A stretch of DNA of 64,000 nt from Octopus vulgaris (taxonomy: Eukaryota), in the NCBI GenBank assembly GCA_951406725.2, contig OX597840.1:35836001-35900000 (forward strand), written 5' to 3'. The notes beneath the pieces were generated by a model that searched no databases, was not told the DNA's origin, and saw only the letters and a program-made list of their open reading frames with translations. The translations under genes and the position numbers were made by a program. Below, piece after piece: positions 4,828 through 31,599 of the stretch (the stretch's first letter is position 1; the number at the start of each line of letters is the position of its first letter).

Positions 4828-5512
4828 TATTTCTTTATTGCCTACAAGGGGCTAAGCATAAAGGGGACAGACAAGGACAGACCAAGGGATTAAGTCGATT
4901 ACATCGATCCCGGTGCGTAACTGGTACTTTATTTATCGACCCCGAAAGGATGAAAAGCCAAATCGACCTTGGCGGAATTTGAACTCAGAACATAGCGGCA
5001 GACGAAATACTTATTTCTTTACTACCCACAAGGGGCTAAACACAGAGAGGACAAACAAGGACAGACACACGGATTAAGTCGATTATATCGACCCTAGGTT
5101 ACCGTGGTCTTTTCCGTAGGATTTCTTTCCACGGATAAACCTTATCTGCTTCCCCCTTTACACTTTATCTCATGACATTTCTGTGATACACGATCCCTAT
5201 TGATCGTTTTTTCGTTTACTTTTTTCTTTCCCTTTTACGATCCTTTTTGATCGAAAACCTACCCCACTTTTATTTTTTTCTCCCCAAAAAGAAAAGCTCT
5301 ACTTTGTAATCTTTCCCGTCTGTGTGTAGCTCTGTGTGGCTAATAAAGAAACATATATCGACCCCAGTGCGTAACTGGTACTTATTTAATCGACCCCGAA
5401 AGGATGAAGGGCAAAGTCGACCTTGGTGGAATTTGAACTCAGAACGTAGCGGTAGGCGAAATACCGCTAAGCATTTCGTCCGGCGTGCTAACGTTTCTGC
5501 CAGCTCGCCGCC
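4828..5512 (-). mobile_element. SINE-A dimer (one head, two bodies) interrupted by LINE 3' fragment E
   Basis: Head ggcggcgagctggcagaaacgttagcacg near 5512; B-box-like gagttcaaatt; unit junction gaaatacttatttc near 5003-5016. Confidence 0.9.
5095..5353 (+). mobile_element. 5'-truncated non-LTR retroelement 3' UTR (element E) with 11-bp TSD
   Basis: Flanked by tatatcgaccc at 5084-5094 and 5354-5364. Ends in gctaataaagaaaca. Second copy at 63548-63731. Confidence 0.85.
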
Positions 5513-10856: not shown

Positions 10857-11542
10857 TGTGGAGGCGCAATGGCCCAGTGGTTAGGGCAGCGGACTCGCGG
10901 TCGTAGGATTGCGGTTTCGGTTCCCAGACCGGGCGTTGTGAGTGTTTATTGAGCGAAAACACCTAAAAGCTCCACGAGGCTCCGGCAGGGGATGGTGGTG
11001 ATCCCTGCTGTACTCTTTCACCACAATTTTCTCTCACTCTTACTTCCTGTTTCTGTTGTACCTGTATTTCAAGGGGCCGGCCTTGTCACTCTCTGTGTCA
11101 CGCTGAATATCCCCGAGAACTACGTTAAGGGTACTCGTGTCTGTGGAGTGCTCAGCCACTTACACGTTAATTTCACGAGCAGGCTGTTCCGCTGATTCGG
11201 ATCAACCGGAACCCTCGTCGTCGTAACCGACGGAGTGCTTCCATATTGAGCGAAAACACCTAAAGCTCCACGAGGCTCCGGCAGGGGATGGTGGTGATCC
11301 CTGCTGTACTCTTTCACCACAACTTTCTCTCACTCTTACTTCCTGTTTCTGTTGTACCTGTATTTCAAAGGGCCGGCCTTGTCACTCTCTGTGTCACGCT
11401 GAATATCCCCGAGAACTACGTTAAGGGTACTCGTGTCTGTGGAGTGCTCAGCCACTTACACGTTAATTTCACGAGCAGGCTGTTCCGCTGATTCGGATCA
11501 ACCGGAACCCTCGTCGTCGTAACCGACGGAGTGCTTCCATCC
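10857..11542 (+). mobile_element. SINE-C (tRNA-derived head, possibly tRNA-Arg-like) with tandemly duplicated ~296-bp body
   Basis: A-box-like tggcccagtggttag and B-box-like ggtttcggttccc. Body 10947-11243 is repeated at 11244-11540. TSD atttttaaaata at 10845-10856 and 11543-11554. Confidence 0.88.
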
Positions 11543-12377: not shown

Positions 12378-12772
12378 AAGCGGCGAGCTGGCAGAAACGT
12401 TAGCACACCGGGCGAAATACTTAGCGGTACTTCGTCTGTCGTTACGTACTGAGTTCAAATTCCGTCGAGGTCGACTTTGCCTTTCATCCTTTCGGGGTCG
12501 ATTAGATAAGTACCAGTTATGCACTGGGGTTGATATAATAGACTTAATCCCTTGGTCTGTCCTTGTTTGTCCCCTCTGTGTTTAGCCCCTTGTGGTTAGT
12601 AAAGAAATAGGTATTTCGTTTGTCTTTACGTTCTGAGTTCAAATTCCGCCGAGGTCGACTTTGCCTTCTATCCTTTCACGGTCGAAAAATTAAGAACCAG
12701 TTGCATAATGGGGTCGTTCAAACTGATTAGCCCCCTCCCAAAATTTCGGGCCTTGCGCCTAGAGTAGAAAAG
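12378..12772 (+). mobile_element. SINE-A dimer whose two units have different 3' tails
   Basis: 17-bp TSD aatattttggtaagtta at 12361-12377 and 12773-12789. Junction gaaata|ggtatttcg near 12604-12618. Confidence 0.9.
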
Positions 12773-18569: not shown

Positions 18570-19550
18570 CGGTTTCAAATTTCGGCATAAGGCCTGCAAT
18601 TTCGTGGGGTGGTGTAAGTCGATTACATCAACCCCGATGCTCAACTGGTACTTATTTTATCGCCCTTTGAAGGATAAAAAGCAAAGTTGACCTCGGCGGA
18701 ATTTGAACTCAGAACGGATGAAATACTTCTAGGCATTTTACCCGGTGTGTTCCCGTTTTTGCCAGCCAGCTCGCCACTTTAGTGTACGAATAGAATAATT
18801 ATTTGTGCTCAAGACACAAGGCGTTGGAAATTTTTGGGGAAGGGGACTAGTCGATTACATCGACCCCAGTGCGTAACTGGTACTTATTTCATCGACCCCG
18901 AAAGGATGAAAGGCAAAGTCGACCTCGGCGGAATTTGAACTCAGAACGTAGCGGCAGAAAGCGTACGAGTGTAATGATTCCAAATTTCGGCACAACGCCA
19001 GTAAATTCAGGGAGGGGATAAGTAGTTTATATACTAACCCACAGTACACGACTGGTATCTAATTTATCAGCCCCGGAAGGATGAAAAGCAGTGTCGATCT
19101 TGGTGGAATTTGAACTCAGAACGTAAGGACAGACGAAATACTTATTTCTTTACTACCCACAAGGGGCTAAATACAGAGAGGACAAACAAGGACAGACAAA
19201 CGGATTAAATCGATCATATGTGCGTAACTGGTACTTATTTAATCGATCCCGAAAAGATGAAAGGCAAAGTCGACCTCGACTGAATTTGAATTCAGAACGT
19301 AGCGGCAGGCGAAATACCTATTTTGTTACTAACCACAAGGGGCTAAACACAGAGAGGACAAACAAGGACAGACAAATGGATTGAGTCGAACATATCGACC
19401 CCAGTGCGTAACTGGTACTTAATTTATCGACCCCGAAAAGATGAAAGGCAAAGTCGACATCGGCAGAATTTGAACTCAAAACGTAGCAGCAGACGAAATA
19501 CCGCAAAGCATTTCGCTTGGCGCGGTAACGATTCTGCCAGTTTACCGTCT
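18570..19550 (-). mobile_element. Composite cluster of five SINE-A units (two heads, three tail types)
   Basis: Five repeats of the gaaaggatgaaaggcaaagtcgacctcggcggaatttgaactcagaacg core. Flanked by accatcacgYatatat at 18554-18569 and 19552-19567. Confidence 0.88.
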
Positions 19551-21971: not shown

Positions 21972-22206
21972 TTAAGGCGGAGAGCTGGTAGAAACGTTAG
22001 CACATCGGGCGAAATGCTTAGCGGTATTTCGTCTGCCGTTACGTTTTGAGTTCAAATTCCGCCGAGGTCGACTTTACCTTTCATCCTTTCGGGGTCGATA
22101 AATTAAGTACCAGTTACGCACTGGGGTCGATGTAATCGACTTAATACCTATGTCTGTCCTTGTTTGTCCCTTCTATGTTTAGCCCCTTGTGGGTAATAAA
22201 GAAATA
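21972..22206 (+). mobile_element. SINE-A monomer, full length
   Basis: 13-bp TSD ggttatccaatat at 21959-21971 and 22207-22219. Confidence 0.93.
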
Positions 22207-29776: not shown

Positions 29777-30030
29777 AATGTAAGTCAAGGTAGAAAATAC
29801 TAAAATAATTTTATCGTAAAAAACATTTCAGTACCGGTTTCAGTCATTGACATCTTTTCAAATCTAAGTATGCAAAACAATTAAATTTTGGAAAAATTAA
29901 ATGAAAAGTTTTTTAAAAGAATATTTGCATAGTATTCAAATACAAGGGGCATTTCCTTGTTCCTGACTGTCTCTGTAAGTAATGTGGACAGATTTTATAT
30001 AAGAATATAATCAGAAATAAGTCAGGTTTA
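29773..30030 (-). mobile_element. Probable PLE terminus with degenerate hammerhead (29828-29867)
   Basis: Minus strand TTGAAAA-ga-tgtc-aat-gact-GAAA-ccgg-TA. Abuts (TA)n. Confidence 0.45.
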
Positions 30031-30103
30031 ACCGTCAGAGAAGACGTATACTCAAAAGCCTTCCTGCCGTGTCCATCCCTATCAATCTCCTTTCCAATAT
30101 ATT

Positions 30104-31258
30104 TATTTCTTTATTGCCCACAGGGGGCTAAACATAGAGGGGACAAACAAGGACAGACACGGGGATTAAGTCGATTATATCGACCCCAGTGATTTACTGG
30201 TACTTATTTAATCGACCCCGAAAGGATGAAAGGCAAAGTCGACCTCGGCGGAATTTGAACTCAGAACGTAGCGACAGACGAAATACCTATTTCTTTACTA
30301 CCCACAAGGGGCTAAACACAGAGGGGACAACAAAGGACAGACAAGGGGATTAAGTCGATTATATCGACCCCAGTGATTTACTGGTACTTATTTAATCGAC
30401 CCCGAAAGGATGAAAGGCAAAGTCGACCTCGGCGGAATTTGAACTCAGAACGTAGCGACAGACGAAATACCTATTTCTTTACTACCCACAAGGGGCTAAA
30501 CACAGAGGGGACAACAAAGGACAGACAAGGGGATTAAGTCGATTATATCGACCCCAGTGATTTACTGGTACTTATTTAATCGACATCGAAAGGATGAAAG
30601 GCAAAGTCGACCTCGGCGGAATTTGAACTCAGAACGTAGCGACAGACGAAATACCTATTTCTTTACTACCCACAAGGGGCTAAACACAGAGGGGACAACA
30701 AAGGACAGACAAGGGATTAAGTCGATTATATCGACCCCAGTGATTTACTGGTACTTATTTAATCGACCCCGAAAGGATGAAAGGCAAAGTCGACCTCGGC
30801 GGAATTTGAACTCAGAACGTAGCGACAGACGAAATACCTATTTCTTTACTACCCACAAGGGGCTACATACAGAGGGGACAACAAAGGACAGACAAGGGGA
30901 TTAAGTCGATTATATCGACCCCAGTGATTTACTGGTACTTATTTAATCGACCCCGAAAGGATGAAAGGCAAAGTCGACCTCGGCGGAATTTGAACTCAGA
31001 ACGTAGCGACAGACGAAATACCTATTTCTTTACTACCCACAAGGGGCTAAACACAGAGGGGACAACAAAGGACAGACAAGGGGATTAAGTCGATTATATC
31101 GACCCCAGTGATTTACTGGTACTTATTTAATCGACATCGAAAGGATGAAAGGCAAAGTCGACCTCGGCGGAATTTGAACTCAACTCAGAATGTAGCGGCA
31201 GACGAATTACGGCTGCGCATTTCGCCCGGCGTGCTAACGTTTCTGCCAGCTCGCCGCC
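30104..31258 (-). mobile_element. SINE-A hexamer: one head and six ~184-bp units
   Basis: Units start at 30104, 30288, 30472, 30656, 30839 and 31023. TSD (cc)tttccaatatatt at 30089-30103 and 31257-31271. Confidence 0.95.
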
Positions 31259-31599
31259 TTTCCAATATATTACTAAGATAATGTTACTAAAGAGCAATTT
31301 AATTATTATTTCTAGCATATCTGGCGACCACTTGATAGCTTCCCAGTTAGCACATGCTTGATTGCTGGTTTGAAGTTTATTTATATTCATATACCAATGC
31401 ATGTATGTATATGTTTGTCTCGTTGCGTAATTGTTGTGTACGGGTGTATATAAAGTGATTGAAATGGCCTTTGAAGTTCGCTGTGTATTTAACAATGTAA
31501 TAAACGCTTGCATTTTACATTAAATAAGAGACAAACAAAGCGAGCACTTTGAAGTCCCCTGGCGGATTAATTCCTCTTGTGATTTTACCGAAATTTACA

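Follow-up and report, generated by a model that had tools for sequence, protein, structure and literature searches.

The window (the whole stretch of 64,000 nucleotides of Octopus vulgaris DNA that was analysed) carries a row of six units of a tRNA-type SINE, and the fixed junction that joins these units falls exactly on the base at which a site-specific LINE inserts, an element whose tail matches that of the SINE. We consider it likely that the row arose at this LINE site within an element of a small monomeric subfamily (here subfamily M), where it was seeded by a junction-bearing unit and then grew by unequal exchange.

The six-unit array and its parts

The array occupies 30104–31258 on the minus strand and comprises one headed unit (U1) and five head-less units of 183–184 bp (U2–U6; 184, 183, 184, 184, and 184 bp), in which the preceding tail is joined to GGTATTTCG at positions 31022, 30838, 30655, 30471, and 30287 (Table 1). 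The whole is enclosed by a perfect 15-bp target-site duplication (TSD), CCTTTCCAATATATT, with copies at 30089 and 31257. Tandem Repeats Finder (TRF) reported a period of 184 with 5.9 copies at 97%, confirming the earlier note, which had described six ~184-bp units with one head inside one TSD. The lack of T4 runs claimed for the units was found on both strands, and Pol III read-through would thus be possible. The head hairpin quoted in the note (gcgaaatgc-ttagc-ggtatttcgt) is the majority form of the family, whereas the hexamer head reads GCGAAATGC-GCAGC-CGTAATTCGT. Its description of uniform tail ends applies to U1–U5 (GGGTAGTAAAGAAATA followed by GG) but not to U6, which has a different tail type (GGGCAATAAAGAAATAAATAT). 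ARAGORN predicted 0 tRNA genes and Rfam gave no tRNA match; the A-box-like and B-box-like motifs were judged by eye against the consensus.

The joint between flank and head is present in contigs from two samples labelled as the same species, either of which may be the source of the assembly; these contigs carry no information on the number of units. A search with the left flank, whose matches were dominated by another repeat, revealed no empty site. This part of the flank (window 29790–29957) belongs to another high-copy repeat, which shows inverted-repeat joints in contigs.

Table 1. Positions in the window of the parts of the array and of other copies of the SINE family
Feature	Position	Strand	Detail
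Dimer of the family, split by another element, with the same junction	4828..5512	-	junction 5011
Dimer of a long-tail unit and a sister short-tail family at the junction	12380..12760	+	17-bp TSD round both
Older trimer whose last unit is of a third sister family	19013..19540	-	junctions 19142, 19318
Monomer	21977..22206	+	13-bp TSD starting with GGT, as does the junction motif
TSD, 3' copy	30089..30103	-	15 bp; sense start AATATAT, as in TSDs of other copies with a U6-type tail
U6, last unit	30104..30287	-	unit positions 1-21 of donor type; body and terminal tail of subfamily M
U5, inner chimera	30288..30471	-	5' part U6-like, 3' part U1-like; no variant of its own
U4, inner unit	30472..30655	-	GG>AT variant, common to U1 only
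U3, inner unit	30656..30838	-	1-bp deletion within C run
U2, inner unit	30839..31022	-	two tail substitutions, found also at loci L023 and L237
U1, headed unit	31023..31258	-	head and 5' body of subfamily M, with a private 5-bp duplication; tail of donor type
B-box-like motif	31169..31181	-	by eye; in every head-less unit too
Head hairpin	31201..31226	-	variant form; 3' arm starts at family position 48, the LINE insertion base
A-box-like motif of tRNA-type head	31234..31248	-	by eye
TSD, 5' copy	31257..31271	-	overlaps first two head bases

The head 28-mer of the hexamer has seven matches genome-wide, corresponding to four independent monomers, the hexamer itself, and one duplicated pair. These subfamily-M monomers share their head with U1 and their body and tail with U6; one of them (L164) differs from U6 at only two positions over ~160 bp, while U6 differs from the neighbouring U5 by six tail-type differences and one private change. 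The junction was absent from all other loci with this 28-mer genome-wide, and subfamily M lacks both the GGTATTTCG motif and the internal tail type. Given that the head and the last tail of the hexamer both belong to this subfamily, the junction module derives from another lineage; judged by its sequence, the hexamer consists of a subfamily-M element into which a foreign module is set, made up of a main-type tail, the junction, and at least 21 further bases. At the four positions where M differs, the starts of U2–U6 carry donor letters. The seed is thus not accounted for by a plain nick in an M host, and the seeding template would have extended ~21 nt or more beyond the junction. The likely seed was a junction-bearing unit of the main lineage that entered an M element, perhaps by RNA-primed insertion with homologous joining, by reverse transcriptase (RT) template switching, or by ectopic conversion.

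The later growth likely took place in situ, by unequal exchange between neighbouring units. Each of the four inner units shows a single switch from a last-type (U6) 5' part to a first-type (U1) 3' part, as would be expected of unequal exchange in a dimer, and the inner-unit signature has four matches genome-wide, all in the hexamer. Being private to the locus and single-crossover chimeras of its first and last units, the inner units point to local unequal exchange and support the local expansion proposed in the note. A dispersed master with the inner unit of the hexamer was sought genome-wide, and none was found. The note had also explained a variant shared by the units at 30472 and 31023 as a three-unit duplication. 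The variant (GG>AT) is indeed present in U1 and U4 only, but a three-unit duplication fits just one of three markers; we rejected a higher-order repeat of this length, as the two substitutions of U2 are missing from U5 and the 1-bp deletion of U3 is missing from U6. The most plausible reading of the shared variant is a later exchange that spanned three units.

The head, the last unit, and the inner units of the hexamer each lie within ~1–2% of their nearest relatives, so the array probably formed close in time to its insertion. This closeness would also suit a hexamer written whole at insertion, by RT template switching out of register between M-type and junction-bearing RNAs with little later change, as would the M-type TSD and the last units of other arrays, in which the change from long-tail to sister-family letters falls at differing points. 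Five repeats of a private chimeric unit would, however, need a source locus that is absent from the assembly, and the variant confined to U1 and U4 is more easily explained by later exchange, making this scenario improbable.

Growth by local exchange also fits other rows of the family. In 38 rows of three or more units (from the census described below and from individually picked loci), the divergence between inner units is 3.7% inside one array (25 pairs) and 9.4% from one array to another. The units of many trimers are 9–14% apart, and two loci (L050 and L057) resemble intermediate stages of array growth. The arrays thus show both repeated insertion and local duplication.

The fixed junction and the LINE that inserts there

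The SINE is a short, dispersed element (monomer 230 bp) with more than 100 copies and with TSDs. Its exact majority head 25-mer occurs 17,729 times genome-wide, and the exact 20-mer junction 39,269 times; as the reversed control of the latter gave 0 matches, the junction is not a product of chance. We took a census of 1.054 Mb of contiguous DNA, made up of 254 kb surrounding the window plus 800 kb from contig C1. Junctions are about twice as dense there as in the genome on average, and rows broken by deletions are undercounted. It held 89 long-tail loci, of which 35 were monomers and 54 multimers, with rows of two, three, four, five, and six units at 34, 12, 4, 3, and 1 loci, respectively; these counts of unit number apply to the 1.05-Mb census. 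The hexamer is thus the upper tail of an ordinary length distribution. The earlier note had spoken of a SINE turning into a satellite; the steep fall-off in unit numbers does not bear this out, as the hexamer is the longest row and no satellite-scale array was seen among the 89 loci in 1.05 Mb.

The note was correct in describing a fixed, recurrent junction: 80 of the 88 internal boundaries in the census fall at family position 48 (five more at position 15 and three elsewhere). The other junctions reported for the window were all recovered (5011, 12609/10, 19142 and 19318). Each of the 80 position-48 boundaries is preceded by a long tail. Sister families, which are short-tailed and have the head and core in common with the long-tail family, often form the last unit of a row, and were not seen in front of the junction in the census.

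A second fixed junction, at position 15, joins the tail to AGAAACG of the head (1,299 exact copies genome-wide). In the 20 copies inspected (L278–L297), it was always preceded by a SINE tail, mostly of U6 or intermediate type; no whole second head was present in these 20, and no LINE was found for this site.

If all multimers descended from one or a few dimeric masters and varied only by unequal exchange, as in an Alu-like dimeric SINE, dimers should be common and inner tails alike. Dimers are in fact the commonest multimer (34/54), and 44 of 56 junction tails in an unbiased set are of one type. Nevertheless, at least three sister families contribute last units, which carry several tail types, the first and last units of arrays are nearly as unlike as random pairs, fresh two-headed insertions exist, and there is the second fixed junction at position 15. 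Mixed last units largely refute this reading, which we regard as extremely unlikely; the note had named descent from one dimeric master as the case that would overturn its own proposal, and on the same evidence that case fails.

A non-SINE tail that turned up at the junction in the census brought a LINE into the study. One full-length copy measured 5.3 kb, with a zinc knuckle in ORF1 and an ORF2 of 1134 a.a. that contains an APE endonuclease, an RT (nearest solved structure, human L1 ORF2), and a zf-RVT domain, a domain layout on which it is putatively of the Tx1 type. The element inserts between SINE positions 47 and 48, producing a TSD of 13–16 bp that starts at that base. Among copies picked by a 3'UTR motif that excludes the junction, 13/13 end at position 48 (four of them previously seen), as do all of the best 20 RT matches, while at the 5' end the host head and TSD were found in 3/3 full-length copies and at two other loci. 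The last ~35–45 nt of the SINE are shared with the LINE, with identities of 94% over 34 nt and 86% over 42 nt; against the tail of U6, the last 34 nt of the LINE are 94% identical. The LINE tail and its target form the same small inverted repeat as the SINE junction, and we speculate that this complementarity may concern target recognition.

Several variants of this LINE were noted. In a younger subfamily (L259–L277 and L298–L300), 18/20 copies have C instead of G at position 48, and 3/3 full-length copies lie in a head variant with C at this position; a shift in target preference is possible. A sister LINE (L301–L309; 75% identical in RT, ORF2 of 1132 a.a., many near-identical copies) has a similar tail and a different fixed target sequence, where it stacks head-to-tail at 5.26-kb spacing. 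Elsewhere (L238:3651–3962), a headed unit is separated from a LINE insertion by a stretch in which just the terminal 78 bp of the SINE is present, in four tandem copies.

Among the routes that the note had offered for the fixed junction was RNA processing, which we do not uphold, as a site-specific LINE, whose tail matches that of the SINE, has its nick site at precisely this base. On the RNA account, the head loop would be cut, the 3' GAAAUA would pair with UAUUUC, and a 184-nt circle would be ligated or the RT would jump from end to end, with rolling copying to follow. The LINE, however, inserts at the same base with a TSD and needs no RNA cut. The recreated inverted repeat does exist (GAAATA-GG-TATTTC, 6 bp), yet folds at only −1.4 kcal/mol, compared to −14 to −16 for the head hairpin. 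The sequence offers neither a ribozyme match in Rfam beyond a single chance hit nor a hammerhead core (no CUGANGA on either strand), and the predicted circle is no more stable than shuffled sequences (z = +0.91; the SINE monomer gave z = −1.8). Near-identical inner units with a last/first switch would also be expected from circle copying between two template switches, and the 535 exact junctions that follow a U6-type tail (4 of 30 inspected were the LINE) indicate that the junction formed more than once. For the hexamer itself, the lack of GGTATTTCG and of the internal tail type in host subfamily M means that cleavage, ligation, or RT jumping of its own RNA cannot have made the junction; in addition, the variant shared by U1 and U4 requires exchange after insertion, and the divergence of units in many trimers is at odds with copying from one circle. 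We thus consider an RNA route very unlikely.

How arrays come to keep a single head

Having both the tail and the site in common with the LINE, the SINE may be mobilized in trans by the LINE ORF2, as argued for SINEU and Tx1-Mar, and its copies would then land in SINE heads. A position-48 target common to both elements is seen in the 80/88 census boundaries, in two-headed loci, and in TSDs that start with GGT. Of 16 terminal copies that have a main-type tail and a TSD, 9 show a GGT start (one, L177, is doubtful), as do 0 of 6 with U6-type tails, against a genomic GGT background of 1.0%, with some of the scored TSDs falling in simple repeats; GGT starts can reflect endonuclease preference or RNA-primer pairing. 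Among 85 headed arrays, 83 are single-headed and two are two-headed, with a whole SINE inserted behind an older head at position 48. As two-headed loci are the direct product of plain insertion, their rarity indicates that most arrays would need a second step.

Two routes to one-headed arrays are supported by the comparison of units, one in which the host is kept and one in which the row is retroposed whole. In the first, the new DNA would join the host by homology, so that the host head and tail are both retained, as in the hexamer. Of the nine arrays ending in an M-type tail, six have an M or GCCTAG-type head, compared to 3.6% genome-wide (670 vs. 17,729); this set leaves out a dimer with a body variant and another tail (L042), and the head of L050 has an extra mismatch. 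In the census, such a head was present in 1 of 79 cases, namely the hexamer. The GCCTAG head was rejected as a clean subfamily marker, since a related body variant occurred in 2/30 such loci and the exact variant in none.

In the second route, Pol III would read from a new head through the body of the host, and the whole row would be retroposed, yielding a young head with an older, sister-family last unit. Arrays that end in a sister family have first units of the long-tail type and last cores that are more diverged (7.6% vs. 4.5%). A TSD was recoverable in 11/24 of these arrays and in 11/24 long-tail monomers, compared to 4/36 sister-family monomers (p = 0.005). In-place invasion of old sister-family copies is disfavoured as a general route by these young TSDs and long-tail-type first units. 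Over the 85 arrays, the likeness of first to last units barely exceeds that of shuffled pairs, and no special match was found at positions 48–60 (0.101 vs. 0.105 shuffled), so that there is no general signature of a host TSD.

More tentatively, and with somewhat less than even confidence, we suggest that the SINE serves as the landing pad of its own carrier. A read-through RNA would bring target-matching sequence past its tail, prime in another copy at or beyond the LINE nick, and be rejoined by homology, adding a head-less unit. Every such event would yield both a new target and a new read-through template, a loop that may have turned about 60% of the family into multimers, swapped the tails of sister families, and seeded tandem expansion. 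If true, this would constitute a natural site-specific, scarless retro-insertion system.

Known systems and significance

Ohshima and Okada reportedly described tRNA-derived SINEs of octopus in 1994, under the names OK, OR1, and OR2. The SINEs here, where a common head and core unite three tRNA-type families, are probably identical or related to these. Short non-coding tandem units inside one TSD are also characteristic of non-LTR retrozymes, whereas the octopus SINE has no hammerhead or other ribozyme and combines a tRNA-type Pol III head with a LINE-type tail. It also differs from dimeric SINEs of the Alu kind, as its rows have neither a fixed two-part structure nor a uniform second part.

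Within the available parts of the sources, the closest precedent is SINEU-3 of crocodilians, which likewise combines a SINE and site-specific LINEs (Tx1-Mar) on one fixed target, and whose tandem copies are read as sequential insertions (PMC4494074). There, the target is another transposon (Mariner-N4_AMi) and the tandem copies sandwich a TSD (PMC4494074). In the octopus, by contrast, the target is the SINE's own head, the last units can come from sister families, the units then duplicate locally, and the tandem copies are not whole and TSD-separated, 83/85 headed arrays being single-headed. The SINE-derived satellites of squamates (sSat), with up to 1000 units ascribed to duplication and unequal recombination (PMC10702118), resemble the octopus rows, as far as they are described there, in their tandem partial-SINE units, longer terminal unit, and within-locus homogenization. 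The octopus rows differ in having 2–6 units in our sample, tens of thousands of dispersed loci, and a LINE-set boundary. The accessible text of the same source reports that about half of the Dip/B1 copies of the Gobi jerboa are multimers of up to eight full-length units (PMC10702118), a similar share of multimers, although the octopus units are all head-less except the first. L1-Tx1 is listed among recently active LINEs in the part available of PMC13282606; multimers or self-targeting of the SINE are not mentioned in the available parts of PMC13282606, PMC12988792, and PMC3747384. The literature searched held no description of either, although older octopus SINE and genome work, Repbase, or Dfam may hold one.

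The new element here is evidence on how single-headed arrays arise and grow. If our reading is right, a SINE and its carrier LINE, by targeting the SINE's own head, have produced a fixed junction in ~39,000 places without RNA processing, which shows a route from a dispersed repeat to the seeds of tandem rows. With intact young LINE copies (ORF2 of 1134 a.a.) and a sister LINE of 75% RT identity with a different site, target choice is directly testable, and the pair also suits tests of homology-guided 5' joining by an APE-type LINE. For annotation, the chimeric multimers that make up most copies of the family distort consensus building and age estimates.

Further tandem and tail-like structures were noted in the same DNA. 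On contig C1 (~1,774,950–1,775,800), a duplicated segment that spans at least 80 bp and takes in the beginning of the first unit flanks a four-unit row, which looks like the result of duplication at the DNA level. At window 5097–5354, an element lies antisense in a SINE copy, with an end tail resembling the long SINE tail, and four further long-SINE-like tails in the census precede microsatellites. Finally, window 10947–11540 holds two tandem copies, 98% identical, of a 296-bp unit that belongs to another repeat.
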